A stretch of DNA of 64,000 bases from Malacoraja senta (Eukaryota), in assembly GCA_038087875.1 (NCBI GenBank), contig CM075988.1, positions 310,001-374,000 on the forward strand, written 5' to 3'. Each line of letters starts with the position of its first letter. The first letter of the stretch is position 1. Under the pieces are notes generated by a model. That model worked only from the letters and a program-made list of their open reading frames with translations, made no database searches and had not been told where the DNA came from. Positions 5,761 to 60,395 of this stretch are shown here, piece by piece. The translations under genes and the position numbers were made by a program.

Positions 5761-6269
5761 AGAAAGAAAGATTCTCGGGGGAGAAAGAGGGGACTGTGAA
5801 TGAGAAGGGAGGTCAAGGACAGTATCAAACTAAAAGGGAAGGCAGAGAACATTGGAAAGATTAGTGGGAAGCCAGAGGATTGGGATGCTTTTAAAGAACA
5901 ACAGAAGGTAACTAAAAAGGCAATACGGGGAGATAAGATGAAATACGAAGGTAAGCTAGCAAATAATATAATATAAAAGCTAATAATATAAAAGAGTTTC
6001 TTCAGTTATATGAAGAGTAAGAAAGAGGCAAAAGTGGAAGTTGGACCACTGGAAAATGATGCGGGAGAAGTGATAATCTGGACGAAAGAAATGGCAAAGG
6101 AGTTGATTAACGTTTTTTTGCATCAGTCTTCACAGTGGATGCTGGAGAAACTCAGCGGGTGCAGCAGCATCTATGGAGCGAAGGAAATAGGTAACGTTTC
6201 GGGCCGAAACCCTTCTTCAATCCCTGCGGAACTCCGCTAGTCACTGATAGTGAACAAGATAATTAGCAG

Positions 6270-6493
6270 GTACACAAAAAAAAATGCTGGAGAAACTCAG
6301 CGGGTGCAGCAGCATCTATGGAGCGAAGGAAATAGGTAAGGTTTCGGGCCGAAACCCTTCTTCAGTCTGAAGAAGGGTTTCGGCCCGAAACGTTACCTAT
6401 TTCCTTCGCTCCATAGATGCTGCTGCACCCGCTGAGTTTCTCCAGCATTTTTTTGTGTACCTTCGATTTTCCAGTATCTGCAGTTCCTTCTTT
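6270..6493. mobile_element. Short Penelope-derived-like insertion as a head-to-head inverted pair with a hammerhead core; 17-bp TSD
   Basis: Inverted arms of about 95 bp centred near 6366. TSD aacaagataattagcag at 6253-6269 and 6494-6510. Core CTGAAGA-A-GGGT-TTCG-GCCC-GAAAC-GTT. Confidence 0.75.
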
Positions 6494-8450
6494 AACAAGA
6501 TAATTAGCAGAGTGGCTATGACTAGGATGAATGTGCTTGGGAAGCTGAAAGGGCTGAAGGTCAATAAGTTACCTGGACCGGATGGACTGCACCTGATGGT
6601 TCTGAAAGAGGTGGCTTTAGTGATTGTGGAGACATTGATAGTGATATTTCAACAATCCCTTGAATCAGGACTGGTTCCAGATAATTGGAAAATTGCCAAT
6701 ATTACCCCGCTGCACAAGAAGGGAGCAAAGCAGAATAGTGGGAACTATAGGCCAGTTAGTCTGACTTTGGAGGTTGGTAAAAATTTTGAGTCCATTATAA
6801 AGGGTGAGGTTACGGAGTACTTAGAAGTTCACGACAAAATAGGCCGAAGTCAGCATGCCTTAGTGAAGGTGAGATTTTGCCTGACAAAGTTGCTGGAATT
6901 CTTTGAAGAAGTAAATAGCAGTTCATACAAAGGAGAGTCAGTAGATGATGTTTACATTGATTTTCAGAAAGCCTTTGATAAGGTGCCACATGTCTGTGGA
7001 GGCCGGTTCTCTGGATACTTTCAAGAGAGAGCTAGATAGGGCTCTTAAAGATAGCAGAGTCAGGGGATAAGGGGAGAAGGCAGGAACGGGGTACTGATTC
7101 GGGATGATCAGCCATGATCACATTGAATGGCGGTGCTTGCTCGAAGGGCCGAATGGCCTACTCCTGCACCTATTGCCTATTGTCACATGGGAGGCTGCAA
7201 GGGAAGATGAGAGAGTCCGGCAGGCATCATAGAGCAGATATGAGCATGGATAGCATGTTGGTTGGATGGCAGAAGGCAAAGAGTGGCAATAATGGGGGCT
7301 TTATCTTGTTCACTATCAGTGACTAGCGGAGTTCCGCAGGGATTGATGCTGGGGCTCCTGCTCTTCACGTTGTATATTAATGATTTGGATGAGGGAATTT
7401 AAGTCTTTGTGGCTAAGTTTGCGGATGATATGAAAATAGGTGGTGGGGCGGGTAGGGTAGAGACAGCACGGATTCTGCAGAAGGACTTGGACAGGTTTGG
7501 AGTGGGCAGAGAAGTGGGAGATGGAATATATTGTTGTTGGAAAGAACTGCAGATGCTGATTAAACTGAAGAGAGACACAAAATGCTGCAGTTACTGAGGC
7601 AGCATCTCTGAATAGAAGGGAAGGGTGGTTTTGGGTCAAGACCCTTCAAGAAAGGAGCGAGAGAGAAAACGGGGAATTACAGACCAGTTAGCTTGACTTC
7701 GGTGGTGGGAAAGATGCTGGAGTCAATTATTAAAGAGGTAATAATGGGGCATTTGGATAGCAGTAAAATGATTAGTCCAAGTCAACATGGATTTATGAAA
7801 GGGAAATCATGCTTGACTAATCTTCTGGAACTTTTTGAGGATGTGACAAGTAAAATGGATGAAGGGGAGCCAGTGGATGTAGTGTATCTAGACTTTCAGA
7901 AAGCCTTTGATAAGCTCCCGCACGGGAGACTGGTGACTAAAATTAGAGCACATGGTATTGGGGGTAGGGTGTTGACGTGGATAGAAAATTGGTTGGCAAA
8001 CAGGAAGCAAAGAGTAGGAGCGAAGGAGATGAAGCGAAGATGAAGAGAATGGCCTCCGCATGCACCTATTTTTTATGTTTCTATGCTTCAGATTCATATA
8101 TAGTGGATATAGAGGAATATAGTGTACCAAAATGTGGAGTCATGCATTTTGGTAGTAGGAATAAAGGCGTAGGCTATTTTCTAAATGGGGAGAGAATCGA
8201 GAAATCAGAGGTGCAAAGGGACTTGGGAGTGCTGGTGCAGGATTCCCAAAAAGTTAATCTGCAAGTCGAATTGGTTGTAAAGAAAGGAAATGCATTTATT
8301 TCAAGAGTGCTTATATACAAAAACAGGGATGTAATGCTATAAGGTGCTGGTCCGGTTACATTTGGAATATTGTGAGCAATTTTGGGCACCATATCTGAGG
8401 AAGGATGTGCTGGCTCTGGAGATGGTTCAGGGGAGGTTTACAAGAATGAT

Positions 8451-8672
8451 AGATACAAAATTGTGGAGTAACTCAGCGGGTCAGGCAGCATCTCTGGAGA
8501 CGTTTCGGGTCAAGACCCTTATTCAGACTTGAAGTCAGAAGAATCTGAAGAAGGGTTTCGACCCAAAAAGTCACAGATTCCAACTACAGAGATGCTGCCT
8601 GTCCCCCTGAGTTACTCTGGCATTTTGTGTCTATCTTCGGTTTAAACCAGCATCTGCAGTTCCTTCATTAAA
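8451..8672. mobile_element. Short Penelope-derived-like inverted insertion; 14-bp TSD
   Basis: TSD tttacaagaatgat at 8437-8450 and 8673-8686. Contains ctgaagaagggtttcgaccc. Confidence 0.72.
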
Positions 8673-9159
8673 TTTACAAGAATGATCCCAGGAATGAGTA
8701 GGTTATCATAGTTGACGGCACTGCGCCTGTAGTCGCTGTAGTTTAGAAGAATGAGGGGGCAACTCAGTGAAATTCACACAATAGTGAAATGCTTGGATAG
8801 AGTGGATGTGGAGAGGGTGTTTCCACTAGTGGGAGAGTCTAGGACTGGAGGTCATCATCTCAGAATTAAATTCTTTTAGGAAAGAGATGGGGAGGAATTT
8901 ATTTGCTCAGATGGTGGTGAATTTTGCCACAGAAGGCTGTGGAGGCCATGTCAGTGCATACATTCAAGGCAGAGATAGATAGATTCTTGATTAGTATGGG
9001 TGTCAGAATTTATAGGGAGAAGGCAGAGGTTGGGTGGGAGAGATGGATCAGCCTTGATTGAATGGCAGAGTAGTCTTGAAGGGCTGAATGGCCTAATTCT
9101 ACTATCATTTATGATCTTACGATCTTACGTCATTGCTTGAAGCAAGAGGGGTAAAATTG

Positions 9160-13419: not shown

Positions 13420-15282
13420 GGAGGTTTCACGGCAGTCGGGTCACGACCCATGACCCGACTACGCAACGCCAAGTGGAGTACACGCGATGAACTGCAGGTA
13501 AGCACTGACCATTGTTTCCAGCGTGGGTACACAAAAATGCTGGAGAAACTCAGCGGGTGCAGCAGCATCTATGGAGCGAAGGAAATAGGCAATGTTTCGG
13601 GCTGAAACCCTTCTTGCTGTTTCCAGCGTAGCGGGCCCGTGAAAACCCGCCGAAATTGTTAATTTTTGCGCTAAAGGTGGGTTGCACGTAAGGTCACTGG
13701 GTCATAGGGCTTGACGCATGGAGCCGCTTAATCCATCTGGATTACGTAACTTCCGGTATATGTTATTAATGCTAGAAACGCGTACTTTCCTACCTGTTAA
13801 AAACCGCCAAAATGTTGAATTCTTTCGCTGTAAAAAATTGTGGAAGTCGGGGTAAGTGTGAGAGACACGTACCCAACTTCAGAATTACAAAAGTGAAGCG
13901 AAATGAAGGTAAAGAGAAGCGAGAGCTAAAGGGACAACAGCAGCTAAAGTGCTTGGCGAACATTGGCCGTGCAGGTATCGGAATTGAAAATATTGGGATT
14001 TATCGCGTTTGCTCACTGCATTTCATTAACGGTAAGGCATTAATTGGGGGGTTTCTTGATTCCTTTGGTATCTAAAAAGTCTCAGAAGTGATAAATCTGG
14101 TTGTAAATTTTGCTTCAGAGGCATTTTCTTTTTGAATGTAAAAACCCACTTGAGAACCATGGGCGATTTTTAAATTTTACAGCCAGATTTATCCCTTCTG
14201 AAACTTTTTATATGCCAAAGGAATCAAGAAAAAACACAAATAATGCCATTTGATGAAATGCAGTGAGCAAACGGCCAATGTTCGCCAAGCACTTTGGCTG
14301 TTGTCCCTTCAGCTCTCGCTTCTATCTGCCGTCATTTCTCCTCACTTTTTGAATTCTGAAGTAGGCTAAATGTCTCTCACGCTTATCCCGATTTCCATAA
14401 TTATTTACAGCGCAAAAATTGACAATTTCGGCGGGTTTTAACAGGCCCGCTACGCTACCTGCAGTTCATCGCGTGTAATCCATTTGGCTTGGCGTAGCGT
14501 AGCAACAGTACGGGTCATGGGTCGTGACCCGACTGCCGTGAAACCTCCCTATAAATAATTATGGAAATCGGGATAAGCGTGAGAGACATTTAGCCTACTT
14601 CAGAATTCCAAAAGTGAGGAGAAATGACGGTAGATAAGAGCTGAAGGGACAACAACAGCCAAAGTGCTTGGCGAACATTGGCCGTTTGCTCACTGCATTT
14701 CATCAACTAAGGCATTATTTGTGTTTTTTCTTGATTCCTTTGGCATCTAAAAAGTTGCAGAAGTGGTAAATCTGGCTGTAAAATTTTAAAATCGCCCATG
14801 GTTCTCAAGTGGGGTTTTACATACAAAAATAACGCCTCTGGAACAAAATTTACAGCCAGATTTATCACTTCTGAGACTTTTTAGATACCAAAGGAATGAA
14901 GAAAAACCACAAATAATGCCTTACTGTTGATGAAATGCAGTGAGCAAACGCGATAATTCCCAATATTTTCAATTCCGATATCTGCACGGCCAATGTTCGC
15001 CAAGCACTTTAGCAGTTATTGTCCCTTCAGTTCTCGCTTCTCTTTACCTTCATTTCGCTTCACTTTTGGAATTCTGAAGTTGGGTACGTGTCTCTCACGC
15101 TTACCCCGATTTCCACAATTTTTTACAGCGCAAAAATCCAACATTTTGGCGGTTAACAGGTAGGAAAGTACGCGTTTCTTGCATTTATAACATATACCGG
15201 AAGTTACGGATGTCCTCCAGATAGATTGAGCGGCTCCGTGCGTCAAGCCCTATGACCCAGTGACCTTACGTGCAACCCTCCC
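13420..15282. mobile_element. Non-autonomous THAP-bearing DNA transposon (PIF/Harbinger-ISL2EU-like?), outer copy, with a same-family copy nested at about 13674-14550 in opposite orientation
   Basis: End X (gggaggtttcacggcagtcgggtcacgaccc) at 13420 with its reverse complement at 14511-14549. End Y (gggttgcacgtaaggtcactgggtcatag) at 13679 with its reverse complement at 15240-15282. THAP-like ORFs 13812..14075 (RVCSLHF) and 15016..15246. Confidence 0.7.
13525..13617 (-). mobile_element. Short hammerhead-core/Penelope-like insertion; 12-bp TSD
   Basis: TSD tgtttccagcgt at 13513-13524 and 13618-13629. Same sequence family as 6270-6365. Confidence 0.72.
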
Positions 15283-23305: not shown

Positions 23306-23622
23306 GTTTGAATATGTGGGACATTGCCACCAGAATTGGGAAAGCAAGAAGCTGTTCCGAAGGGATGTACTCCACTTGAACTGGCTGGGACCAGAGTCCC
23401 GGCAAACCGTTTAACCAGGGTCGTAGATAAGGTTTTAAGCGAAATCGTGGGGGGTGGATGGGAGAAAGGCTGGAGTCAACAATTTGGAAGATTATAGATG
23501 GAGTTGAAGTGAGGGAGAGTGCAGGAGAGGTTACATAAGTCTCCAGAAGTAATAGGACAGAAAAGTTATGAAGAGAAAAGAGTATAGTCAGGTAAAATTG
23601 TGACCAACGTGAGAGGAGGGGT

Positions 23623-23711
23623 ACACAAAAATGCTGGAGAAACTCAGCGGGTGCAGCAGCATCTATGGAGCGAAGGAAATAGGTAACGTTTCGGGCCGAA
23701 ACCCTTCTTCA
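23623..23711 (-). mobile_element. Short hammerhead-core/Penelope-like insertion; about 14-bp TSD
   Basis: TSD gtgagaggaggggt at 23609-23622 and 23712-23725. Confidence 0.72.
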
Positions 23712-24006
23712 GTGAGAGGAGGGGTGGTGGATACCGAACTAAAGGTGTTATATTTGAATGCAGTATAAGGAACAAAGTGGGTGAGCTTGTAGCACTGTTA
23801 GAAATTGGTACGTATGATGTTGTAGGTATTAAGGAGACGTGGCTGAAAGAAGATTGGAGCTGGGAATAGAAAATCCAAGGTTACACGTCCTATCGAAAAG
23901 GCAGACAGATGAGCAGAGGGGGTGGGGTCGCTCTGCTGGAAAGGAATGAAATATGATCCTCAACGAGAGGTGACATAGGATCAGAAGAAGTAGAGTCTTT
24001 GTGGGT

Positions 24007-24177
24007 TAAAAAAGGAACTGCAGATGCTGGAAAATCGAAGGTAGACAAAAATGCTGGAGAAACTCAGCGGGTGATAGAGCGATGGAAATAGGCAACGTTT
24101 CTGAAGAAGGGTTTCGACCCAAAACTTTGCCTATTTCCTTCGCTCCATAGATGCTGCCTCACCCGCTGAGTTTCTCC
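24007..24177. mobile_element. Short hammerhead-core/Penelope-like inverted insertion; degenerate TSD
   Basis: agagtcttt(gt/aa)gggt at 23992-24006 and 24178-24192; contains ctgaagaagggtttcgaccc. Confidence 0.65.
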
Positions 24178-26984
24178 AGAGTCTTTAAGGGTATAGCTAA
24201 GAAACCGCAAGGGTAAAATAAGCCTGATGGGAGTGATTTACAGGCCCCATACAGTAGCCAGGATGTAGGGTACAAATTACATCAGGAGATATAATCAGCA
24301 TGTAAGAAAGGTAATGTAATGGTGGTCATGAGGGATTTTGATATGCAGGTAGACTTGGTAAATCAGATTGGTACTGAACCCCAAAGAGGCAAAATTGTAG
24401 TGCCTACAAGGGTTTCTTAGAGCAGCTACCAGGCAAAAAGCAATTCTGGATTTAGTGTTGTGCAATGAACTGGATTTGATTAGGGTGGTAAAGGTAAAGG
24501 ACCCACTGGTGACCAATATATGATAAGATTCAATCTGAAATTTGATAGGGGGAAGATGAAAATGGATGTGTCGGTATTACAGCTGAGGGGAGGTGACTAC
24601 AGAGGCATGAAGGAGTAGCTGGCTAAAGTTGATTGGAAAGGGACACTTCCAGCAATGATGGTGGAACAGCAATGTTAGGAACTTCTGGATCTTTCCATTT
24701 GAAAGAGGAAGAATGATTATAGGGGGAGAATGATGCAACCATGGCTGACAAGGGAAGTCAAAGATAGCATAAAACTAAAAGAAAAGGCATATAACATGGC
24801 AATGATTAGTGGGAAGCCAGAGGATTGGGTAATATAGAAAAATAGGTGCAGGCCATTCGGCCCTGCTTTTTCCCCATATCCCTTGATTACTTTTGCCCTG
24901 AGACCTAAATCTAACTCTCTCTTGAAAACATCCAGTGAATTGGCCTCCGCTGCCTTCTGTGGCAGAGAATTCCACAGATTCACAACTCTCTGGGTGAAAA
25001 CAAATTTCCTCATCTCAGTCCTAAATGGCCTACCATTTATTCTTTAACTGTGCCCCTGGGTCTGGACTCCCCCCAACATCAGGAACATTTTCCCTGTGTC
25101 TAGCCTGTCCATTCCCTTAAGAATTATATATGTCTCTATAAGATACCCTCTCATCCTTCTAAATTCCAGTAAATACAAGCCCAGTCGACCCATTGTTTCA
25201 TCAAATGTCAGTCCCGCCATCCCGGGAATTAACCTGATGAACCTACGCAGCACTCCCTCAATAGCAATAATGTCCTTCCTCAAATTTGGAGACCAAAATT
25301 GCACACAATACTGCAGATGCGGTCTCACCAGGGCCCTGTACAACTGCAGTAGGACCTCCTTGCTTCTAAACTCAAATCTTCTCTCAATGAAGGCAGTTAG
25401 ATATCTTCACTGCCTGCTGTACCTGCATGCTTATTTTCAGTGACTGATGTACAAGCATACCCAGGTCTCGTTGCACCCCTTTTCCTAATCTGACACCATT
25501 CAGATAATAATCTTTCCTGTTCTTGCCACCAAAGTGGATAACCTCACATTTATCCACATTATACTGCATCTGCCTACTCACCCAACCAATGTCATCCTGC
25601 AGCCTCATAGCATCCTCCTCACAGCTCACACTGCCACCCAGCTTTGTGTCAACCGCAAACTTGGATATGTCACGTTTAATTCCCTCCTCTAAATCGTTAA
25701 TATATACTGTAAATAACGGGTCCCAGCACCGAGCCTTGCAGCACCCCACTAGTCACTGCCTGCCATTCTGAAAAGGGCCCGTTAATTCCTACTCTTTGCT
25801 TCCTGTCTGCCAATCAGTTCTCTATCCATATCAATATCTTACCCCCAATACCATGTGCTCTAATTTTGCACACTAATCTCTTGTGTAGGACCTTGTTAAA
25901 GGCGTTTTGAAAGTCCAAATACACCACATGCACTGGCTCTCCCTTATCCATTCTACTTGGAACATCCTCAAAAAATTCCAGATTAGTCAAGCATGATTTC
26001 CCTTTATAAATCCATGCTGACTTTGACCGATCCTGTCACTGCTTTCCCAATGTGCTACTATAACATCTTTAACAGTCGACTAAAGCATCTTCCCCATTAC
26101 CGATGTAAAGCTAACTGTTCTATAATTCCCCATTTTACTTCGGAGTCACGTGAGTGACTACATGAAGAATCCCGTACAGCCGCACGTGCGTCATTACGTC
26201 AGACGCATTGGTGCAGGCGGCCGGTTGGAGCAGCAGAGCTCGTCCTGCGCGGTAAGTTTAAACTTCAGGTAAGGTTGTATTTCTTACCTGTTTTGTTTCC
26301 TTGCAGGAACCTCTTGTTGCAGGGGTTTTCCTGCCGGATGCTTCGCGAGGGCCGACGAGGGAACCAGCTGTGGGCTGTGGGGAAACCCCGGTTCCGACCA
26401 CGGAAGCGGGTAGCTGTGGAATGTCGGCTTTCGTGAATTCAGTCAGTGACCCGGTAGTCAATGACTTCCAGGCGTTCCGCGTGCCGGGAGGGTTTCCCTC
26501 ATTTGGCAGATAGATGCTGGTGTTCCCGGGTGGGGACGTCGAGCAGCGGGTGCCGGGAGGGTTTCCCTCCAATATGAATATAGATGCTGGGGTTCCCGGG
26601 GTGGGGACAGCCAGAAGACCCGGTGTCGGGAGGGTTTTCCCTCCGATATGTTTAAAGATGCTGGGGTTCCCGTGGAGGGGAAATCCAGCAGTAATGCGGC
26701 TCCCAGACCGCAGGGGTCCCCAGGATATGGGGTTAAAAGGACGGGAACGGTCAGCCCTGGTGCCGGTAGGTTTTCCTCCAGTATACAGATAGACGCTGGG
26801 ATTCCCGGGGGAAAATGCAGCAGCAATGCGGTGCCCAGACCGCAGTGGTCTCCAAGATATGGGGTAAACCGACCAAAATGGTCAGCCCTGGGGCCGATAA
26901 TAAGAATAAATTTGCAGGTTGGCCAGGAGGGAGCCTTAATGGAGAGGAGGCTCCATCTAGATACACTCCAACAGCAGGAGTTGG

Positions 26985-28130: not shown

Positions 28131-31100
28131 TGAAATGATAGCAGGAGTGGCCTGTTCATTATGAAAGATGGCTGATTAACAACTGATTTCATAGGTTGTT
28201 TCCATTTACAGTGATCATCGGAGATATTTGGAGGCATTGCTATGATCAGCCAATATAACAATATGATGACAATAAATCATTCAAAGAGGACTAAGAGTTT
28301 AAAAACAAAACAAACAAAAAAACACTTGTTATGTATTGGCTGGATGATACTTTGATGCTGTATTTTGCTAAAATCCACTGTTTCAGTCTCAAACTATATT
28401 TGAGAAATTGGGCTCCTCTATCCAGTTAAAATTAAGTTGTTATCAAATGGACTAGTTGGTCATTGGAGTATGCCTTTGGCTATTAATTGGCCTGTGACTC
28501 CGCCCTGGGCAACAGATTGGAGTCTATAGAAACCTGGAACAGCCTTGTGGTTATAAAGCAGCTTTCTATTCATTAGACTAATTGGCAATGTAATAGATGT
28601 GATGCAGCTGTGCAAGTGGGAGAACTGACAGCATGCTTAATGGCAAACTATAAAGGGCCATGAAGGTCATTGATAACACACCTTTGCTATTCCCAGCTGA
28701 AGCTACTAAAGTCACTATGATGGACAAACAGTATTCAGCATTGCTTCAGTAGTTGATCAATAAATATGTAATTATATTGCAAAATTATGCTAATGGCGTA
28801 AGGTGGGAAATTGCGAATGTCATCTCTAGTTGGAGGTGAAGGAGATTTGCATGAGTTATTAACTCTGCAGTTATTGGTATCAACTATCTATAGACCCTAC
28901 AAGCATTTTATGGGTTAAAGAGTGATTGAGCAAATATGCATATCTGCATGCTCAACTTCATGTTGATACACTATGATGGTGGCATACGATAGTCACATGG
29001 GTGCAATCAAGTAAAAGAATCCTGTAATAGGTACATAATCTCATTTGCCACTGGAATATGATACAGTACACATCAATGACAACACAGAATGGGTTTTGGA
29101 CCACACCGTATTTATGAAATTCACAGGTTGCAAAAATGTGTGGCATAACAGTGGCGAAAGATACATTCTCGTTACAAGCAGGAGGAATGGTCTTTTATGT
29201 CTTCTTCCATTTTGCTTCATCAGTCAGGGCTTCAAATAAAGTAATCAAGAGCCCGCTTTAGGTTCCAGCTGTGTGATTGGCCTATGCAGTTTGATTCCCG
29301 ATTTGTCGGGAATAATAATAATGCAACCTTATATGGTTATTTTAAACGTAATTTGCTGGTTCAGCCTGTGGCTCGGGAAATCAGCCTTTGCATGATAAAA
29401 TCAATTTATGTTCTACAGATTCTCAATAGACTGCGTACAGCTTGGGTTGTCACCCCTATTCTTGTATGTATTAAGAGTGCTGGGATAGTACCAAAAAGCA
29501 GTATTTTGCTTCTTCAGATGGGAAGTGTTTGTTTAATGCTCATGTTACATTTAAAATGGTACAGATTTCGGAGCTCTTGGAGTTCATTTTAATGGTCTTT
29601 GACAATATTGAGTTATAGGGTCATTAACGGTGCCAAGGTGCTTTCCATCAGATTTGCTACAGCAAACGAGATCCATTTAGTTGAGTTCACCCCGGATATC
29701 GAGTTAGTAAAGGATATCCTTAACACAAGTTTCCCAGGGCAAGTACAATGCAGTATGGGAGGTTGACATTGTGTTAACACTATTTTCACCAGGGGGTTTC
29801 TAGCTACATTCTTAGCTTTGGCGGATCTCATTAGGTAGTTATCCTCCTGGCGCTGGTTTAGCGCAACAGGTCAGTCGCTACATAATTGCGACGGGACAGG
29901 ATGATTACATCTGTAAATAATATGTATAGTATTTTATGTTTATAATTTACTTAAGCAGAGCACAAGGGGTGTCAGGTCTCAAAATAGATTAAGGTGTATC
30001 CAGGGACCTTTAGTTATGTGAGGGCTCACATATACAACAATACGTAAAGGTCACCAAGAGCCTTCGAGGCTCTTAGTTAGCTATGATTGTTAGTTACAAA
30101 AAACTTTATAAGAACGTATCAGTTCAGACCATTTCCAGGTGATAAAACAGAGTTGAGTTATGCAGGAGTAGATACTGATTCCAGATCTCACTCTACCAGG
30201 GCTGCTACAACAGCAGCAGCAAAGGTTAATTATGTTTCGCTGGGCCACATCCTAACGGCTGAAGCATGGTCAAAAGAACGAATTTCCAAACATTTGATAA
30301 TAACCGTTGCCAGACCAGGGTGTTTCTCAATCTCATTTTACGTTCTGTTTATAGGTTCCATCCGGATGAGAGATGGGACTATTATGTTTACTTCGTTTAA
30401 CAGCATCAGCATGTTTTAAATCTATGTCATGACTGTATGCATTATGAATGTTTTCCCTCATTTGTCAATGAAGCAGTTGTGGTTGTGTAGACTTGTTTCT
30501 CGCGGCATGAAATCACAGAGCTTTGAAATCTTCACGTGGTCACTCACATGACTCCGAAGTAAAATAGTTAAATTAAACGAGAACTTACCAGTTTGAAGTT
30601 TGATCTTTATTTTATGAGGAGTTACGATGAGGTACTACGTGCCTTCCGCTCCCACCCTCATAAAGATCGAGCTGGTAGTTCTAGTCTTCTCTCGTCTTAC
30701 TATTATACTTCAGTCACTATTATCTGTGATTTCACACCGCTGCTTTGAAGATTGACGCACGTGCGGCTGTACGGGATTCTTCACGTAGTCCCTCATCGTA
30801 ACTCCTCATAAAATAAAGATCAAACTTCAAACTGGTAAGTTCTCGTTTAATCTTACTATTTTCTCTCTCCCTCCTTTCTTAAAAAGTGGACTTACATTGG
30901 CTACCCTCCAGTCCACAGGAACTAATTCAGAGTCGAGAGAACATTGGAAAATGACCACCAATGCATCCACGATTTCTTGGGCCACCTCCATGAGTACTCT
31001 GGGATGCAGACCATCAGGCCCTGGGGATTTTTCTGCCTTTTGTCCCAACAGTTTACCAAACACCATTTCCTGACTAATGTGGATTCCCTTCAGTTCCTCC

Positions 31101-31187
31101 CTACCACTAGATCCTCGGTATAGTATTTTTCGGATACATTTTTTGTGTATCTTGTTTAGTGAAGACAGAACCAAAGTACTCGTTTAA

Positions 31188-31496
31188 AGGCCCTGTCCCA
31201 CTTTCCCGAGTTACTCACAAACTCTCCCGAGTTTTCTCCTTGATTTGAACTCGGAGAATTACGGTAATAGCCGTTCGTAGGTACTCCGGGCTATTTTTTT
31301 CAACTCGTGGTCATTTTGTAACGTTGGAAAAAATGTCCCGACTTACCTGATGCCCCGAGTTCCTATGGCTGGCATTATGAGCCACTACAAAACATCTACG
31401 GACTCGCTACTGACATTACCCAACATTCCCCGGGTTCGAATCAAGGGGAAAACTCGGGAGAGTTTGTGAGTAACTAGGGAAAGTGGGACAGGGTCT
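31188..31496. mobile_element. PIF/Harbinger (Tourist-like) MITE
   Basis: TIRs of about 70 bp (aggccctgtcccactttcccgagttactc... / ...gagtaactagggaaagtgggacagggtct). Flanked by taa and aaa, a probable TAA TSD with one change, inside the CR1. Confidence 0.8.
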
Positions 31497-32407
31497 AAAC
31501 TGTCTGCCATTTCCTTGTTTCCCATTATAAATTCACCTGTCTCTGATTGTAAGGGACCTACATTTATCTTCACTAATCTTTTTCCTTTTTACACATCTAG
31601 AGAGCTTGTAGAGTCAGTTTTTATATTCCCCTCAAGCTTTCTTTCATGGTCTTTTTACCCTCCTCTTAATTAACCTCTTTGTCTTCCTCTGTTGAGTTCT
31701 AAATTTATCCCAGTCTACCGGTTTGCTGCTTCCTCTGGCCAATTTATATGCCTTTTCCTTGGATTCCTTGAATTCACACAATCCTTGAATTCCCTCGTTA
31801 GCCGCGGTTGAGGCGTCTTCCCCATTTTATTTTTTCGCCAGATAGGGATGAACAATTTTTGGAGTTCATCCATGCGGTCTTTAAATCTTTGCCATTGCAT
31901 CTCCACCGTCAACCCTTTAAGTAAAATTTGCCAGTCTATCCTAGCCAATTCCCGTTTCATACCTTCAAAGTCTCACTTCTTTATGTTCAGGACCCTAGTC
32001 TCTGAATTAACCATGTCACTCTCCATCCTAATGTAGAATTCCACCATATAATGATCACTGTTGCCCAAGGGGCTCTGCACAACAACAACCCATGATAACT
32101 GCTGTACCTTTGCTACATGTATCCCTAATTTCCTGCTTGATGCTATACCCAAGCACCCGACTGCTGTTTGGTGGTCTGTATACAACTGCGATAAGCGTTT
32201 TCTGCCCTTGGCTATTTCGCAGTTCTACCCATACCGATTCTACAGCATCCAAGCTAATGTATCTGCTTGCTATTGCATTAATCTCCTCTTTAACCAGCAA
32301 TGCCACCCTTCCTTTCTGTCTATCCTTCCTGAATATTGAATACCCCTGAATGTTTAGCTCCTAGCCTTGGTCACCCTTGAACCATGTCTCTGTAAATCCA
32401 CCTATAT

Positions 32408-32500
32408 CTGAAGAAGGGTCTTGACCTGAAACATCGCCAATTCCTTCTCTCCATAGATGCTGCCTCACCCGCTGAGTTACTCCAGCGTTTTGTGTCTACC
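32408..32500 (+). mobile_element. Short hammerhead-core/Penelope-like insertion
   Basis: ctgaagaagggtcttgacctgaaac...gatgctgcctcacccgctgagttactccagc. Confidence 0.65.
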
Positions 32501-34194
32501 ATATCATATTCCTTAACTACTAACTGCATTCAATTCATCCACCTTATTACGAATGCCCCTCGCATTAACGCACAAAGCTTTCAGGTTTATTTTTCTTATC
32601 TCCCTTCTACCTTTTGCTTCTGTCCTCCTTTTATGGCACTCTGTCTCCTTGCATTGGTTCGCATCCCCCTGCCCTGTTAGATTAAACGTGACCTTTCCTA
32701 CACTCTCTTTCCCTTTAGCTGCATGGATACGCTTCCACGCTGTTGACTCCACCCCCCTTTTCAGTTTAAACCCACCCGTGTAACTCTAGCAAACCTGCCT
32801 GCTAGAATGGCAGTCCCCCTCCAATTAAGGTGCAATCTGTCCCTTTTGTTCAGGTCACCCCTTCCCCAGAAAAGATTCCAGTGATCTAGAAATCTAAATC
32901 CCTGCCCCATGCATTAACTCCTCAGCTACACATTCAGATCCCCTATCTCCCTGTTCCTACCCTCACTAGCACGAGGTACTGGAAGCAACCCAAAGATAAC
33001 CACCTTAGAAGTTCTGCCTTTCAGCCTTATGCCTAGTTCTCTATCCTCACGTTGCTGAACCTCCTTCCTCGTCTTACCCACGTCATTTGTGCCTACATGC
33101 ACAACTACTTTCGACTGCTCCCCTTCCCTCTCGAGGATGTCCTGAAGTCGGTCTGAGACATCTTGGATCATGGAACCAGGGAGGTAACACACAATTCTCG
33201 AGTCTCGCCTGTCACTACAGAATCTCCTGTCCGCACCTCGGACAATGGAGTCACCCATCACTATGGCTCTGTCTGACGTCGGTCTCGCTGGTCGAGTTTC
33301 AGCGCTAGGATTGGAGCCACCGACCTGTCCGCCGCTCGGACTGGAAGCGTCATCTGCCCCGACAGCTCCCAGGAGGGTGTACCTGTTTTCAAGAGGTAAT
33401 TCTACCAAGGTCTCCTGCACTCATTTTCTCTCCTTCCTTTCCGTCTCTAACCATTGCACCTCTTGTACTCTTGGGGTGATGACCTGACTGTAGGTCCTGT
33501 CCAGGAAGCTTTCATCTTCTGAATGGACCGCAGGTCATCCAGCTGCTGCTCCGGTTCCCTAACTCGGTCCCTGAGGAGTTGCAGCTGGACACAGTTTCCA
33601 CAGGTGTAGTGGTCAGTGACACCAACAATGCCCCTGACTTACCACATCCTGCAACAAACGCACTGCAACAACATTCCTGCCATCACTGTAATAAGTGTAA
33701 ATATTTAAATTAAATTTAACACACACAACCGATTAAATGTACCCTCCTTGCCGAAGAATCTTGAGCCAAAGACTCGCACTTTACCTCTCTAAGGCACCTC
33801 ACCTCTCCAAAGCCGCTCTGCTACACTTGAACTTAGTTTTATCCAATCAAGTCAACTATCCACTCAACTAATTAGGATGTCTCAGCGAATCCACTCACTC
33901 GCTGGTCTGGCTGCTGCTCCTCCATGACCTTCAAGGTAATTGGCCCAGGCTGTCTCATGGCGCTCTTTTACAAGCTCCCAAACTTTACTCACTTGCTGGG
34001 AGGCTTTTGAAAAAACAAGTAAAAAGGCAACATGGGGACAAAAGATGAAATATGAAGGATAATCTAGCAAAGAATATAAATGAGGATAGCAAGAGTTTCT
34101 TCAGATATATAAAGAGTAAGTAAAAGTCAAGAGTGGACTTTGGACTTCAAGAGTGTAGGGGGTTAAACTTAGTGGATTGGCTATCACTAAGAAG

Positions 34195-36383: not shown

Positions 36384-39175
36384 ATGGGATTGTCAAGCAA
36401 GCTGATTCAGTGTGATGGTTGCAGTATGTGGGAGGTCAAGGACACTGCTGGTGCCTCTGGCTGCTACAAATGTGAGAAGTGCATCCAGGTACAGCTCCTG
36501 AAGAACCGTGTTGGGGAACTGGAGAAGCAAGTGGATGACCTCGGGTTCGTCCGAGATAGTAAGTCGTTCCTCGACAAGTCCTACAGTAAGATTGTTACAC
36601 CTAAGGTACTGTAAGAGAGAAGGTGGTTGATGGTGAGAAAGGGAGGGAAACATGGTATGCAAACGTCGCCGGGTGTTGTACCTCTTGTGAACAGGTTCAC
36701 CCACTTAGAAGCTGTCGGGACAGAAGACGTTATCACGCTGAGCGGCGTACTGGCTTGCGAAGCAAAAAGGGCTGTTGAGCCAAAACCAAAGAGGCCAACG
36801 TCAGGCAATGCCATTGTAGTTGGAGACTCCATTGTGAGAGGTACGGACAGAGGTTTCTGCTGGAACAGACGGGATTCGAGGATGGTGTGCTGCCTTCCTG
36901 GTGCCAGGATCCAGGATGTCACGGACAGAGTGCAGAAAATCCTCAAGGGCGAAGGTGAACAGCCGGAAGTGGTAGTGCATGTCGGCACAAATGATGTCGG
37001 AAAGAAGGGGATGAATATTCTGCAGCGTGACTTTAGAGAGCTCGGAAAAATGCTGAAACGCAGGACCTCCAGGGTTGTTATCTCCGGTTTGCTTACAGTT
37101 CCTCGTGCTGGCGAGAGCAGGAACAGGGAGATACGGGACCTGAATGTGTGGCTGAGGAACTGGTGCAGCGGGCAGGGATGTAGATTCTTAGATCACTGGG
37201 ATTTGTTTTGGAGTAAGGGGAAACTGTACAAAGGGGACGGATTGCGTCTTAACAGGTGGGGGACCAGCATTCTGGCAGGCAGGTTTGCCACTGCTACACG
37301 GGAGGTTTTAAACTGAATAAGGGGGGTGTGGTGTCAAATGGGATAGTCGAGGACGGAGTTAAAGGGAAAGAGAGTAAAGGGATGGTTAATGACCCCAGAA
37401 TTATCGGGAAAGGAATCTCACAAAGGGATAGGAGAGTATAGCCAAGTGTAATAGGGATCGATGTGAAAGGTGAGATGCGTAAAGGAATTAAAATTATTGT
37501 ATATGAATGAGCGAAGTATAAGAAGTAAAGTAGATGAGCTTGAGGCTCAGTTAGAGATTGGTAGATATGACATTGTGGGGATTACTGAGACGTGGCTGCA
37601 GGAGGTTCGGGCCTGGGAACTTAATATTCAGGGTTATACATCCTATAGAAAGGACAGGCAGGTGGGCAGAGGTGGGGGGGGGGTAGCTCTGCTGGTGAGG
37701 GATGGAATTCAGTCCCTTGCGAGGGAAGACATGGGGATTGGCGCAGTAGAGTCACTGTGGATTGAGTTGACGAATTGTAAAGACAAGAAGACACTAATTT
37801 GAGTTATCTACAGACCCCCAAATAGTAGCCCGGATGTAGGGTGTAAGTTGCAGCAGGAGTTAAAACTGGCATGTAACAAAGGTAATGCCCCTGTGGTGAT
37901 GGGGGATTTCAATATGCAGGTAGACTGGGAAAATCAGGTTGGTTCAGGACCGCAAGAAAGAGAGTTTGTAGAATGCCTCCGAGATGGATTCTTAGAGCAG
38001 CTTGTAATGGAGCCGACCAGAGAAAAGGCAATTCTGGATTTAGTGTTGTCCAATGAACCAGATATGATAAGAGAACTCGAGGTAAAGGAACCGCTTGGAC
38101 GTAGTGATCATAATATGATTAGTTTTAATCTGTAATTTGAGAAGGAGAACGTTAAAGCGGAAGTGTCAGTGATGCAGTTGAACAAAGGGGACTATGAAGG
38201 CATGAGAGGGGAGCTGGCCAAGGTAGACTGGAAAGGGATCCTAGCAGGAATGACGGTGGAACAGCAATGGCAGGAATTTCTGGGCATAATCTGGAAGACG
38301 CAGGATCATTTCATTCCAAAAAGGAAGTAAGATTCTAAGGGGAGTTGGAGGCAACCATGGCTGACAAGAGAAGTTAGGGATAGAATAAAACTAAAAGAAA
38401 AGATGTATAACACAGCAAAGAGTAGCCGGAAGCCAGAGGATTGGAAAACTTTCATTGGACAACAGAAGGAAACAAAATGGGCAATACGGGCTGAAAAGAT
38501 GAAGTACGAAGGAAAGCTGGCCAGGAATATAAAGAAGGACAGTAAAAGCTTCTTTGGATATGTTAAGGGGAAAAGAGTAGCAAAGTCAAATGTGGGTCCC
38601 TTGAAGGCAGACACGGGTGAAATTATTTTGGGCAACAAGGAAATGGCAGAAGAGTTGAATAGGTACTTCGGATCTGTCTTCATTAAGGAAGACACAAACA
38701 ATCTCCCAGATGTACTGGAGGACAGAGGATCTAAGGGGGTAGAGGAACTGAAAGACATTTTTATTAGAAGACATTTTTATTAGGTGAGAAATAGTATTGG
38801 GTGGGCTAATGGGACTGAAGGATGATAAATCCTCTGGACCTGATGGTCTGCATCCCAGGGACCTCAGGGAGGTGGCTCTAGAAATAGTGGATGCATTGGT
38901 GATCATTTTCCAATGTTCAATAGATTCAGGATCAGTTCCTGTGGATTGGAGGATAGCTAATGTTATTCCACTTTTCAAGAAAGGAGCGAAAGAGAGAAAA
39001 CGGGGAATTACAGACCAGTTAGCCTGACTTCGGTGTGGGAAAGATGCTGGAGTCAATTATTAAAGAGGTAATAATGGGGCATTTGCATAGCAGTAAAAGG
39101 ATTAGTCCGTCAACATGGATTTATGAAAGGGAAATCATGCTTGACTAATCTTCTGGAATTTTTTGTAGATGTTAC
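36384..39175 (+). mobile_element. CR1 family 'C': ORF1 (zinc finger/leucine zipper + SGNH esterase) and 5' part of ORF2, disrupted
   Basis: CDGCSMWE..CYKCEKC; ORF 36627..37316 (IVVGDSIVRG, VVHVGTND, DGLRL); endonuclease ORFs 37470..37802 and 37848..38135. Confidence 0.88.
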
Positions 39176-43340: not shown

Positions 43341-44660
43341 TATGGTTATATGTTATATAGCTATGTCTCCATGATCCCAACTATATCATATTCATTAATA
43401 ACTATCTGCACATTCAACTCATCCACCTTATCATGAATGTTCCTTGCATTGAGAAACAAAGCCTTCAGGCTTGTTTTTACAACACTCTTACCCCTTATAC
43501 AATTATGTTGAAAAGTGGCCCTTTTTGATTTTTGCCCTGGATTTTTCTGCCTGCCACTTTTACTTTTCACCTTGCTACCTATTGCTTCTACCCTCATTTT
43601 ACACCCCTCTGTCTCTATGCTCATGCTCCCACCCTCCTGCCACATTAGTTTAAATCCTCCCCGACAGCACTAGCAAACAGTCTCCCAAGAACATTGGTTC
43701 CATTCCAGCCCAGGTGCAGACCGTCCTGTTTGTACTGGTCCCACCTCCCCCAGAACTGGTTCCAATGCCCTAGAAATTTGAATCCCTCCCCCTTGCACCA
43801 TTTTTCAAGCCACGTATTAATCTGCAATATCTTCCTATTTCTACTCTGACTAGCACGTGGCACTGGTAGTAATCCAGAGATTATGACCTTTGAGGTCCTA
43901 CTTTTAAGTTGATCTCCTAGCTCCCTAAATTCACCTTGTAGGACCTCATCCCATTTTTTACCTATATCGTTGGTGCCAATGTGCACCACGAGAGCTGGCT
44001 GTTCACCCTCCCCCTCCAGAATGTTCTGCAGCCGTTCAGTGACATCCCTGACCCTTGCACCAGGGAGGCAACATACCATCTTGGAGTCTCGTTTGCGGCC
44101 GCAGAAACGCCTATCTATTCCCCTTACAATTGAATCCCCTATTACTATAGCCCTTCCACTCTTTTTCCTCCCCTCCTGTGCCACAGAAGGTGCCATGAAC
44201 TTGGCTGCTGCTGCCTTCCCCTGATGAGCCATCTCCCCCAACAGTATCCAAAATGGTATATCTGTTTAGGAGGGAGATGACCGCAGGGGACTCCTGCACT
44301 ACCTGCCTACTGCTACGCTGGCTAATGGCCACCCGTTCCCTTTCTGTCCGCTTAACTTTTACCTGCGGTGTGACCAACTCACTGTATGTGCTATTCACGA
44401 CTTTCTCAGCATCGTGGATGCTCCAGTATGGATCCAACCGCAGCTCCAATCGTTCAAAGCGGTCTGCCAGGAGCTGCAGCTGGACACACTTCCTGCAAAC
44501 GTAGTCACCAGGGTCACCAACCATATCCCTGATCTCCCACATGTTGCAGGATGAGCAAACCATGGGGCCGATCGCAACTGACATGGCTTGCCCCCAAATT
44601 AAATCAACTCACTCACACTATAAAAATATTAATCCTTTAAACTGTACCTTTACTAAAAAG

Positions 44661-45235
44661 CACTGTCCCCTTAACTCACTGAACCCTTAACTCACTGTAC
44701 CCTTAACTCACTGTACCCTTAACTCTCTGTACCCTTAACTCACTGAACCCTTAACTCTCTGTACCCTTAACTCTCTGTACCCTTAACTCTCTGTACCCTT
44801 AACTCGCTGAACCCTTAACTCGCTGAACCCTTAACTCGCTGAACCCTTAACTCGCTGTACCCTTAACTCGCTGTACCCTTAACTCGCTGTACCCTTAACT
44901 CGCTGTACCCTTAACTCTCTGTACCCTTAACTCTCTGTACCCTTAACTCTCTGTACCCTTAACTCTCTGTACCCTTAACTCTCTGTACCCTTAACTCTCT
45001 GTACCCTTAACTCTCTGTACCCTTAACTCTCTGTACCCTTAACTCTCTGTACCCTTAACTCTCTGTACCCTTAACTCGCTGAACCCTTAACTCGCTGAAC
45101 CCTTAACTCGCTGAACCCTTAACTCGCTGAACCCTTAACTCGCTGAACCCTTAACTCGCTGTACCCTTAACTCGCTGTACCCTTAACTCGCTGTACCCTT
45201 AACTCACTGTACCCTTAACACGCTGTACCCTTAAC
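44661..45235. repeat. 16-bp tandem array (CCCTTAACTC[A/T/G]CTG[T/A]A), about 35 copies, in the CR1 5' UTR
   Basis: Read directly; variation is essentially limited to two positions per unit. Confidence 0.95.
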
Positions 45236-45344: not shown

Positions 45345-46800
45345 TTACAGATTGGGTCCTCCTCCTCTTGCTCCAACGGCTCCTGGGCCTGAAAGTACTG
45401 TCAGGGTACCTGGACAGAGTCGAGGGAGGAGGTATAGCGACAGGTGTTGAACCTTCTGGGAACCTGCAGGGGAAGGTACCTGGGGAGGGGGTAGTTTGGG
45501 TGGGAAGGGATGAGGTAACCAATGAGTTGTGGAGGGAATGGTCTCTGTGGAAGGGGAATGAGGTTGAGATGGGAAGATGTGGCCAGTAGTGCGATCCCGT
45601 TGGAGGTGGCGGAAATTTCGGAGGATTATCTGTTGTGTGCGACGGCTGATGAGGTGGACGGTAAGGACTAGGGGGACTCTGTCTCTGTTGCGATGGGGGG
45701 GAAGGGGAACAAGGGCAGAGCTGTGGGGTACTGAGGAGACAGGAGTGAGGGCCTCATCTATGATGGGAGAGGGAAACCCCCATTCCCTAAAGAATGAGGA
45801 CATCTCGGATGTTCTAGTATGGAACACCTCATCTTTGGCGTAGATGTGGCATAAACTGAGGAATTGGGAGTAGGGGATGTCTTTGCAGGTGTCTGCAGGA
45901 AGCAGGGTGGGAAGAAGTGTAGTCAAGATAGTTGTGGGAGTCAGTGAGTTTGTAATAGACGTCAGTAAATAGTCTATTTCTTGTGATGGAGACGGTGAGA
46001 TCAAGAAAGGGGAGATGGTGGAGATGGTCCAAGTAAATTTGAGTGCAGGATGAAAATTAGTGGCGAAGTTGATGAAGTCCTTGAGTTTTGCATGGGTGCA
46101 GGAGGTAGCACCGATGCAGTCATCAATGTTACGGAGATAGAGTTCGGGGATAGGAACAGGGATTGTTCAAGGTACCCTAAAAAGGGGAAGGCATAACTGG
46201 GGCCCATGAGGGTGCCCATAGCTACGCCTTGGACTTGGAGGAAGTGGGAGGAGTCAAAGGAGTAATTATTAAAGGTGAGGACCAATTCCACTAGGCGGAG
46301 TAGGGTGTTAGTAGAGGGAAATTGGCTGGTTCTGCAGTCGAGATAGAAACAGAGGGCTTTAAGGCCATCCTGGTGGGGGATGGAGGCGTTGAGTGACAGA
46401 ACATCCATAGTAAAGATGAGGGAGTGGTAGCTTGGAAAGTGGAAGTCATTAATGAGACGAACGGCATGTGAGGTATCTTGGACATAAGTTGGGAGAGATT
46501 GGACTGGGGGGATAGGATGGAGTCAAGGTACGTGGAAATCATTTCCGTGGGACGGGAGCAGGCAGAAACAATGGGTCTGCCAGGACAGTTGTGTTTGTGG
46601 ATTTTGGGGAGAAGGTAAAACCGGACTGTGCGGGACTGGGAAACGATAAGGTTGGGGGCTGTGGAAGTGATGAAATCAGTAGTGGTGTTTGAGATTAAGA
46701 CCTGGTGCTCATCTGTGGGATCACGGTCCAGTGATAAGTAGTAGGAGGTGTCTGAGAGTTGTTGCCTGGCCTCAGCCCGGTAGAGGTCAGGCAACCATGT
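45345..46800 (-). mobile_element. Penelope-like element RT fragment, frameshifted
   Basis: FYLLPKIHK..PGRPIVS (46291..46794), MDV.SL..SIPHQDGLKAL and GVAMGT.MGPSYA (46001..46408), YYKLTDSHNYLDYTSSHP (45829..46032), IPYSQF. Confidence 0.85.
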
Positions 46801-46934
46801 CTGAAGCCTGGTAGAGCCTTTTCAGTACTGTTCCTGCATCAGTTTTGGGATCCCTCAACGTTTCAGTATGCCTCAACACTGCCACCTAGTGGAACTTCAC
46901 TCTTTCTGCACGGTCCTCATGCTTACGTTAAAAC

Positions 46935-52520: not shown

Positions 52521-52572
<52 letters not shown>

Positions 52573-52630
52573 TATATATTTCTCTAGTTTCTTTCTTGTG
52601 ATTTCCTTTAATTTGTTGATCTTTTTTCAA

Positions 52631-52676
<46 letters not shown>

Positions 52677-52902
52677 TATATATATAGATATATATATATA
52701 GATATATATATATATATAGATATATATATAGATATATAGATATATATATATATATATATATATATAGATATATATATATATATATAGAGAGAGAGATTGA
52801 AAAAAGATCAACAAATTAAAGGAAATCACAAGAAAGAAACTAGAGAAATATATATGTGTGTGTATATATATATATACATCTATATCACATATTTTTTCCA
52901 TA
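52499..52902. repeat. Long palindrome centred on an (AT)n/(AG) microsatellite
   Basis: 52499-52645 is the reverse complement of about 52785-52902, apart from (AT)n length. Confidence 0.9.
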
Positions 52903-53576: not shown

Positions 53577-53810
53577 TGTGGCGGCACCTGATAGCAACCC
53601 AAGGTCACGACGAACCATCGGCTCTAGAGGGCGGCGTCTTGGTGGGGGAGACGCGAGTCACGGGGTCGGTATCTGAGTTGTTATTTAAGGCCGGGCAACG
53701 CCCATGTCAGCTGAGGAGTAGGGAGCTGTAAGCAGAAGAATAAACACGTCTGGAGCACACAACCTGTGTCCGACTAGTTTTTGGCTGGACTCCTGCCAGT
53801 CCCCGCCACC
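53577..53810 (+). repeat. 5' LTR
   Basis: tgtggcgg...ccgccacc, with internal TATTTAA and AATAAA. Confidence 0.95.
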
Positions 53811-57733: not shown

Positions 57734-57967
57734 TGTGGCGGCATCTGATAGCAACCCAAGGTCACGACAAACCATCGGCTCTAGTGGGCGGCGTCTTGGT
57801 GGGGGAGACACGAGTCACGGGGTCGGTATCTGAGTTGTTATTTAAGGCCGGGCAACGCCCATGTCAGCTGAGGAGTAGGGAGCTGTATGCAGAAGAATAA
57901 ACACGTCTAGAGCACACAACTTGTGTCCGACTAGTTTTTGGCTGGACTCCTGCCAGTCCCCGCCACA
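57734..57967 (+). repeat. 3' LTR
   Basis: tgtggcgg...ccgccaca, preceded by a G-tract PPT. Confidence 0.95.
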
Positions 57968-58123
57968 ATATATATATTTAGATATAAGTTAAATTTAATT
58001 TTGTGCACAGTTTGTGTTAATGCAATACAAGGGAAACTGCACAATACAATGCAAGGGCAAACTACGCAAAGGAGGGGGCTGGGGAGGAAGGATGGGAGGA
58101 AAATGGGCAGAAACGGGGAAAAC

Positions 58124-60273: not shown

Positions 60274-60395
60274 CTGAAGAAGGGTCCCGACCCTAAACGT
60301 CACCTATCCATGTTCTCCACAATGATTCCTGACCCGCTGAGTTACACCAACTTTGTGTCTATTCTTGTAAACCAGCATCTGCAGTTCCTTGTCTT
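60274..60395 (+). mobile_element. Short hammerhead-core/Penelope-like repeat
   Basis: ctgaagaagggtcccgaccctaaacgtcacctat...aaaccagcatctgcagttcct. Confidence 0.65.

Follow-up and report, generated by a model that had tools for sequence, protein, structure and literature searches.

Short repeats with a minimal hammerhead motif in Malacoraja senta are probably truncated ends of Penelope-like elements

Introduction

How did a short sequence with a hammerhead-like head come to lie, in several orientations and lengths, at ten sites within 64,000 nucleotides of the Malacoraja senta genome? The stretch in question, positions 310,001 to 374,000 of the forward strand of contig CM075988.1 (assembly GCA_038087875.1), is called the window here, and coordinates count from its first letter. 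An original prediction from the sequence described a non-autonomous, retrozyme-like or Penelope-like family of mobile elements carrying a minimal hammerhead ribozyme core and flanked by target-site duplications (TSDs). Insertions of Penelope-like elements (PLEs) are known to bear a 30-40-bp tail at one end together with an inverted, 5'-truncated copy (PMC8557442). We conclude that the repeats are quite likely 5'-truncated ends, pseudo-long terminal repeats (pLTRs), of endonuclease-bearing PLEs, probably of Neptune type and in at least two subfamilies.

Results

Copies, ends and target-site duplications

With the arm at 6367-6461 as query, blastn and nhmmer recovered 13 arms in the 64-kb window (E 1e-25 to 1e-3), at all ten sites where the repeat had been predicted. 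The 3' ends of arms were taken from a comparison of copies with and without the tail rather than from local alignments, which overshoot them. Five arms, 95-100% identical to the 6367 arm set, form a young subfamily.

The best-preserved insertion is a head-to-head inverted pair at 6269-6497, made of an untailed arm on the reverse strand (6269-6365), an apex base (6366) and a tailed arm on the forward strand (6367-6497). Its 92-nt arms are 98% complementary and 1 nt apart. The pair is enclosed by an exact 17-bp TSD, read on the forward strand at 6253-6269 and 6494-6510, the right copy of which shares 4 nt with the tail end. The optional tail of 36 nt (6462-6497, forward strand) lies between a short 3' end at 6461 and a long 3' end at about 6497. 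A second pair, from the older subfamily, occupies 8448-8671: an untailed reverse-strand arm (8448-8529), a short filler and a tailed forward-strand arm (8544-8671), within an exact 14-bp TSD (8437-8450 / 8673-8686). In the third pair, at 24005-24179, the tailed reverse-strand arm (24005-24101) is truncated inside the hammerhead at +21 and the untailed arm (24100-24179) is on the forward strand; its TSD (23992-24006 / 24178-24192) is 15 bp with 2 mismatches. Thus each of the three pairs lies within one TSD, and each has one tailed arm (3/3). Arms within a pair share subfamily bases and the three pairs have different centres, so the pairs arose one by one during insertion. In two of the three, the untailed arm stops where solo copies have their short end.

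Three solo arms stop at the short end: 13526-13615 on the reverse strand, with an exact 12-bp TSD (13513-13524 / 13618-13629); 23620-23712 on the reverse strand, which has an intact core, no helix I and an exact 14-bp TSD (23609-23622 / 23712-23725); and 32407-32500 on the forward strand, with a 7-bp TSD candidate at chance level. Two old solo arms retain the tail, at 7535-7647 (reverse strand, head truncated, no TSD) and at 60274-60390 (forward strand, core base G12 mutated, no TSD found). A further solo arm at 6139-6219 (reverse strand) is identical to the 6367 arm at 81/81 positions, has C3 changed, stops at +82 and has no TSD. The last, tailed arm at 63879-64000 (reverse strand) has no unpaired A before helix II and has A15.1 mutated; it leaves the window just upstream of the core.

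Over the 13 arms there are two fixed 3' ends 36 nt apart, a short one at about +95 and a long one at about +131 from C3 of the core; five arms end at the short site, six at the long one and two stop earlier. In reads, depth falls at 6489-6502, and 6493 reads T>A in 73% of reads. The predicted cut site is the start of none of the 13 arms. Twelve of them, one of which leaves the window at -3, have a 5' end no more than about 6 nt from C3, a concentration at the hammerhead's 5' edge, and the remaining arm begins at +21.

TSDs were found at five of nine testable sites (exact 17, 14, 12 and 14 bp, and the 15-bp match with 2 mismatches); the 63879 site, cut by the window edge, was left out of the scan. 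As a control, 5 of 300 random pairs scored as high as the weakest of the five. The prediction of TSD-flanked copies was therefore borne out at five sites, with 12-17 bp, and failed at three that have none, the site at 32408 being at chance level. Tails, inverted pairs and TSDs are described marks of PLE insertions, which argues for mobilisation by a Penelope-type reverse transcriptase (RT) and endonuclease. The two 3' ends, the three one-tailed head-to-head pairs, the clustered 5' ends and the upstream continuation described below add an anatomy that had not been predicted.

Several observations accompany these copies. A 46-nt piece of the host long interspersed nuclear element (LINE) at 6217-6262 recurs, inverted and at 100% identity, 1 kb away at 7301-7346. 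Four nucleotides are common to this piece and the head of the 6139-6219 arm that it adjoins, and 10 nt are common to the duplicate and the TSD of the adjacent pair; the arrangement looks like a templated insertion in a complex integration. A weak, older look-alike at 63442-63520 would be a 14th arm with another head (nhmmer E 0.1), and perhaps belongs to another PLE family. Two segments, 6443-6448 in the body and 6473-6480 in the tail, are complementary to the body motif at 6414-6421. Predicted folds pair the motif with the tail in three of five tailed arms, and one of the remaining two lacks it; this predicted pairing may shape the two RT start sites.

Copy number and upstream junctions

Words of 6269-6493 occur in 20 of the 23 sequencing runs listed, which bear six organism labels, and about half or more of the words occur in 17; runs X18-X21, with a small word share, were left out of the read analysis. 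At 80% likeness, 80,378 contigs of DNA run X1 align to 6342-6540, as do 22,307 and 24,512 of 17.6 million reads in two RNA runs (0.13-0.14%). These counts mark the repeat as a high-copy family. The strand of the reads, with a roughly 6:1 bias, was left out: it is not clear how mates are assigned, and the bias could stem from oligo-dT priming at A-rich flanks.

At the head of the arms, the largest single class of loose ends is a shared pyrimidine-rich upstream sequence, in four of four runs among the rows listed. Two such shared sequences were found, with at least 5388 and at least 1579 reads in X22 and at least 5650 and at least 1826 in X23; the second was seen in both RNA runs. In DNA contigs, head loose ends with unrelated A/T-rich flanks number at least 373 and at least 395, versus at least 495 for the shared-flank row. 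Many copies thus continue upstream into shared sequence, and are probably 5'-truncated pLTR ends rather than units of a tandem retrozyme. Exact read-through of the 6366 apex amounts to about 1-4% of arm depth. Joints from tail to head (6497 to 6362/6365) are rare: at least 8 and at least 10 of the 80,378 contigs in X1, at least 2 and at least 2 contigs in X15, and none among the joints listed for two raw-read runs.

The hammerhead motif

The arm at 6367 is the sole copy with both an intact core and helix I, and its minimal hammerhead spans 6365-6396 on the forward strand. Helix I is formed by 6365-6366 and 6395-6396, followed by CUGAAGA (6367-6373), an unpaired A (6374), helix II (6375-6378 with 6383-6386), GAAA (6387-6390) and an ACGU palindrome (6390-6393); the layout predicts a cut after 6394. 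This fits the minimal PLE hammerhead consensus of Fig. S3 in PMC4209133, which includes an unpaired base before helix II, and the predicted match to a minimal type I hammerhead of PLE type is supported. A strict minimal-hammerhead descriptor found two matches in the window (6367 on the forward and 23712 on the reverse strand) versus none in 50 shuffles. The loose core pattern alone was modestly above chance: it had 5 matches against a shuffle mean of 1.23, and 1 of 100 shuffles reached 5.

Within the family, the core CUGANGAH ... GAAAN-NUH fits the majority of reads, and every consensus position fits. Individual copies are more worn: core plus helix I are kept in 1 of 12 head-bearing arms, the strict core is broken in 10 of 12, and G12 is mutated in 4 of 12. 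Eleven of 12 arms have the unpaired A before helix II. Helix II opens with G10.1-C11.1 and is paired in 48 of 48 cells over 12 arms, so that its predicted retention across copies stands. Its changes are one-sided (U-A/U-G, G-C/G-U), and no compensatory change was found in the 12 arms or among the read variants listed. Scored as a whole, the structure did not exceed the shuffle control in percent paired, which was as good in 127 of 500 shuffles; the covariation score was as good in 17 of 500. The helix II loop does vary, as had been predicted, though mostly through one T/C family variant and CpG decay. The loopless ACGU palindrome is likewise the family majority in reads and is intact in 5 of 12 head-bearing arms.

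Among the common non-CpG read variants listed, those at helical positions keep pairing: 6383 G>A, in 62% of RNA reads, turns U-G into U-A, and 6395 A>G, in 48%, turns U-A into U-G. Two others, each in 60% of RNA reads, are 6394 T>C, which gives GUC, and 6379 T>C at a loop position. The 5' strand of helix I had been thought invisible, and this proved wrong: in reads the boundary of the family lies at 6362-6363, which puts (T)CAGT before the core family-wide and makes two helix I base pairs visible (G-C, then U-A or U-G).

The sequence before the core has other properties. TCAG-T-CTGA is a small palindrome and makes up the apex of the pair at 6269-6497. Family-wide (6362-6366 and the loose ends), a tract of pyrimidines runs up to a CAG that stops one base before the core, a possible 3' splice site. 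In Drosophila virilis Penelope an intron ends at helix I (PMC4209133), and by analogy the CAG could act as a splice acceptor. Elsewhere, the reverse-strand arm at 8526 carries a deletion of about 14-15 nt, at about 8499-8500, that starts right behind the predicted cleavage triplet; a 2-nt microhomology leaves its position ambiguous.

Decay and predicted activity

CpG decay affects 10-18% at core positions and 8-9% at body positions. Decay of the core is thus at least as heavy as that of the body, suggesting that inserted copies are not under conservation. Inserted copies decay and are probably mostly dead, and we propose that the hammerhead is maintained in source elements.

Folding predictions were in keeping with little activity of single copies. 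The only intact copy, arm 6367, sits in a 92-bp hairpin with its inverted partner. For lone arms no hammerhead fold is predicted, the probabilities of helix I and helix II being about 0, and in the young variant a competing 6-bp hairpin is predicted over GAAAC. For the dimer, the predicted fold of lowest energy differs from the active one (-24.6 vs -13.3 kcal/mol for the active fold without helix I). Cleavage as a dimer was reportedly described by Luense et al. in 2017.

Rfam covariance models gave no family at gathering score in the window. In 6100-8700 there were 13 matches by E-value, hairpin-type or weak and below gathering, and none was a hammerhead model. Read ends did not pile up at the cleavage site in contigs and fragmented single-cell libraries, which are unable to reveal such a pile-up.

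A Neptune-type fragment and its relatives

The Penelope RT fragment predicted at 45345-46800 was confirmed in identity at 45415-46833 on the reverse strand as a decayed open reading frame (ORF) of a Neptune-type PLE. It comprises RT, thumb and a remnant of a Zn-finger linker, contains frameshifts and stops, and ends before the GIY-YIG domain. Pfam gave no meaningful match for the two RT fragments of the window, and both were identified through homologues. The Neptune-type assignment follows homologue motifs: 16 of 18 long homologues carry the Cys motif (CX2-5CxxC linker) and a YxxxYIG-type motif, and the window remnant aligns to the linker. A protein search with the fragment among longer proteins gave 1 match in 917 candidates, and relatives of the RT were absent from viral contigs (0 of 11 stretches). 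The predicted link between fragment and arms did not hold up. The nearest arm is about 13 kb away, so that all the fragment tells us is that this genome harbours elements of this kind. Decayed, distant from the arms and broken off before GIY-YIG, it was rejected as evidence for the mobiliser. Next to it, 44661-45235 is a tandem array whose unit measures roughly 19 nt.

From metagenomes, 80 loci, the best of 324 confirmed and many of them from a few samples, were retrieved with an alignment of 11 homologues. The strict descriptor found 20 motifs in 15 of the 80 loci (15 on the ORF strand, 5 inverted) versus 2 in 20 shuffles. Many share a 4-bp GGG(C/U) helix II and GAAACGU(C/U). With a relaxed pattern over 700 nt, a motif lay 101-535 nt downstream in 11 of 24 loci that reach the ORF end (L017 by the relaxed pattern only). 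By motif matches, the hammerhead layout is typical of the kin of the RT fragment. An inverted motif copy lies upstream of the ORF in L020, L052, L063 and L072. Paired pLTRs stop matching at +82 to +103 in four of five loci and at +45 in L052, and the inverted copy of L063 begins at -7.

In the Neptune-type loci L020 (2190-2298, 4452-4564), L052 and L063 the inverted pLTR pairs have one arm that ends after a T-rich GTGT motif. The other pLTR arm has a tail that ends similarly to the window arms, a similarity that is marginal.

Other features of the window

The repeats of the window form a vertebrate-type landscape, with CR1-like LINE fragments and one long terminal repeat (LTR) element. The latter, LTR-retrotransposon-like, lies at 53577-57969, where direct repeats (53577-53812 / 57734-57969) enclose RT, RNase H and integrase matches. 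LINE ORF1-like frames at 32926-33420, 36615-37316 and 43645-44265 match GDSL esterase (Lipase_GDSL_2/OSK), a feature that some CR1-type elements share. At 13676-15281 and 30561-31496 lie clusters of nested inverted repeats, with arms of 72-149 nt, that resemble miniature inverted-repeat transposable elements (MITEs); the arm at 13526 sits beside the first cluster, within related sequence. A long self-complementary repeat tract occupies 52542-52885. Finally, about 25 residues of P0154, a gene model resembling vertebrate phospholipase C beta, are translated from the repeat, by exonisation or through an annotation error.

Discussion

The boundaries of the copies, their two 3' ends, the pairs, the TSDs, the motif and its decay are read directly from the window and the reads, and together they make truncated pLTR ends of PLEs, probably of Neptune type, the likely source of this family. 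The predicted mobilisation by a Penelope RT is upheld by the tail, the inverted pairs and the TSDs. Its non-autonomous character is not: most common among the head loose ends are shared upstream sequences, which is what longer elements would leave when truncated.

Some results weigh against this reading. No sequence joining an arm to a PLE ORF was found in the window or the sequence collections, and the body pattern had 0 matches in metagenome, viral and prokaryote contigs (the head pattern likewise had 0 in viral contigs). Translating the arm as an ORF start gave no credible match among the RT homologues; its 1 match in 12 candidates was the phospholipase C beta model only, and this candidate was rejected. 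Upstream, consensus agreement of the loose ends is only 0.35-0.62 and their identity as a PLE 3' untranslated region is putative, and single-cell libraries may over-sample T-rich flanks. One tailed arm in each of three pairs is too few for significance alone, and four of nine testable sites have no convincing TSD (none at three, a chance-level 7 bp at 32408). On the side of the relatives, 13 of 24 ORF-end loci have no motif by the relaxed pattern (3 of them with <130 nt of flank), the arm resembles the relatives' pLTRs weakly beyond the core on its downstream side (its scores are equalled by 21 and by 72 of 500 shuffles), and a few metagenomes supplied many of the 80 loci.

Four other explanations were weighed. 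The repeats might be a separate, short non-autonomous family derived from a pLTR, either a master of about 130 nt resembling a short interspersed nuclear element or a pLTR plus non-coding filler, which is transcribed alone and mobilised by a PLE in trans; trans-acting pLTRs have been described (PMC3846280). This could apply to the young subfamily only, whose five arms are 95-100% identical. It would also account for the 5' ends, since 12 of 13 within about 6 nt of C3 is far sharper than random truncation, and among the rows listed for DNA contigs the unrelated A/T-rich flanks (373 and 395), taken together, exceed the shared-flank row (495). However, among the rows listed no single class of head loose ends is larger than the shared upstream sequence in any of the four runs, three pairs with three centres are not copies of one palindromic master, and exact read-through of the 6366 apex stays at about 1-4% of arm depth. 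We consider such a master unlikely. A palindrome moved as a unit by a transposase, as in a MITE or hairpin DNA transposon, would explain the near-perfect inverted repeat at 6274-6458 with its TSD, but not solo arms with TSDs of their own, TSD lengths of 12 to 17 bp, unequal arms of which one is tailed, differing pair centres or the many reads, most of them, that stop short of the apex. We reject it as exceedingly improbable.

A non-LTR retrozyme, in which tandem hammerhead repeats yield circular RNA that reinserts, was part of the original prediction and is rejected here as highly improbable. The type I hammerhead motif, the long TSDs and the few tail-to-head joints in X1 and X15 agree with it, and there is a report of retrozymes from one chondrichthyan genome, with the argument that retrozymes descend from pLTRs (bioRxiv 10.64898/2026.07.22.740005). 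Yet the window has no tandem array, its copies being solo or inverted; the unit of 95-131 nt is below the 150-450 bp of retrozymes (PMC7229834); the motif is minimal rather than canonical; copy ends are not at the cut site; and no tail-to-head joint is among those listed for the two raw-read runs. It is also very unlikely that the hammerhead is a vestige or coincidence, such that the repeats move by the PLE route and the motif cleaves in no source element. Several results would suit this explanation: no Rfam hammerhead match, a helix I of only 2 bp, no compensatory helix II pair, the competing 6-bp hairpin over GAAAC, a predicted helix II probability of about 0 in lone arms, no read-end pile-up (in libraries unable to reveal one) and the finding that cleavage is dispensable for insertion in vitro (PMC11167929). 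Against it, the consensus positions all fit the family majority, the common variants keep pairs, and relatives of the RT carry the same layout behind ORFs.

Truncated pLTR ends agree well with described systems. The minimal hammerheads of metazoan PLE pLTRs (PMC4209133) share with the window arms CUGANGAH, a helix II opening with G-C, GAAAN, a palindromic 15.2/16.2 and the lack of loop III, as well as a pyrimidine-rich 5' flank and large numbers of copies that are single or on opposite strands. Both the 4-bp helix II and ACGU recur in the Acropora Neptune row. The window arms differ from that set in being known without a linked ORF and in a helix I of 2 bp, at the short extreme, a length also seen in the Culex, Drosophila and Oikopleura rows of Fig. 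S3. Neither the window sequence nor any cartilaginous fish is among the rows compared. Poseidon of Anolis carolinensis, PAc (PMC11167929), also combines a pLTR hammerhead with two 3' ends that define a 30-40-nt tail, which in PAc is the distance between two RT start sites. Its hammerhead needs protein and is dispensable for insertion in vitro, and no RNA ends were seen at the cut site. Unlike PAc, the window family is probably Neptune, has no ATG in the core and is known from sequence alone, and its targets, which are not AT-rich throughout, have 0-4 nt in common with the end of the element.

With Adineta vaga Penelope (PMC3846280) and the general PLE scheme (PMC8557442) the window shares solo pLTRs, inverted pairs, a one-sided tail, a junction palindrome and a single TSD. 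In Adineta, head-to-head pLTRs with one tailed arm lie within a single TSD, and self-priming was proposed for the inverted arm. The window inserts differ in being about 90-230 bp long with no ORF between the arms, and their TSDs measure 12-17 bp versus 8-10 bp. Animal retrozymes (PMC7229834; bioRxiv 10.64898/2026.07.22.740005) are likewise non-coding, pLTR-related and equipped with a type I hammerhead and long TSDs; window arms are not tandem, have a shorter unit and carry a minimal rather than a canonical ribozyme. We found no publication on Penelope hammerheads in chondrichthyans in a literature lacking most subscription journals, with Repbase and Dfam outside the search. Both databases probably hold the family, and the supplementary tables of the 2026 preprint (bioRxiv 10.64898/2026.07.22.740005) may list a related sequence.

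By analogy with these elements we infer the link to a PLE ORF, the priming steps and any cleavage. Modelled on the anole Poseidon, a PLE protein with RT and GIY-YIG would make staggered nicks about 12-17 bp apart. Reverse transcription would start at one of two sites on the pLTR RNA, about +95 or about +131 from C3, giving untailed or tailed copies. In many cases synthesis would stop close to the hammerhead's 5' edge, once 90-130 nt had been copied, and joining to the target would leave a solo arm. Sometimes the same event would also produce a second, inverted arm, and hence a head-to-head pair with one tail and one TSD. The hammerhead would be of the known minimal, dimer- or protein-dependent type.

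For the inverted arm, priming of the two nicked strands seems to us slightly the better model: in vitro the anole protein extends both strands (PMC11167929), and the untailed arm is at the short end in two of the three pairs; three pairs cannot decide. The position of those two untailed arms fits a scheme in which each nicked strand is primed at its own RT start site, on an RNA of its own, and the cDNAs are joined head to head via TCAG-T-CTGA. The hammerhead might then serve as a holding point for an RNA dimer, through ACGU, and as an RT stop, and less as a nuclease, a speculation to which we give a low probability.

Most likely the element is real and of a familiar kind, with a motif that has already been described and is broken in most window copies. 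The outcome is then an annotation: a high-copy vertebrate repeat takes its place among Penelope pLTR ends that carry a minimal hammerhead. If the speculation on the hammerhead as holding point and RT stop is true, the short copies, thousands in number, would preserve an unresolved intermediate of PLE integration on a genome scale. Self-priming and two-primer models of inverted PLE insertion could be told apart with young copies that have sharp ends, TSDs and inverted pairs, and the same copies could show whether the hammerhead sets the RT stop.

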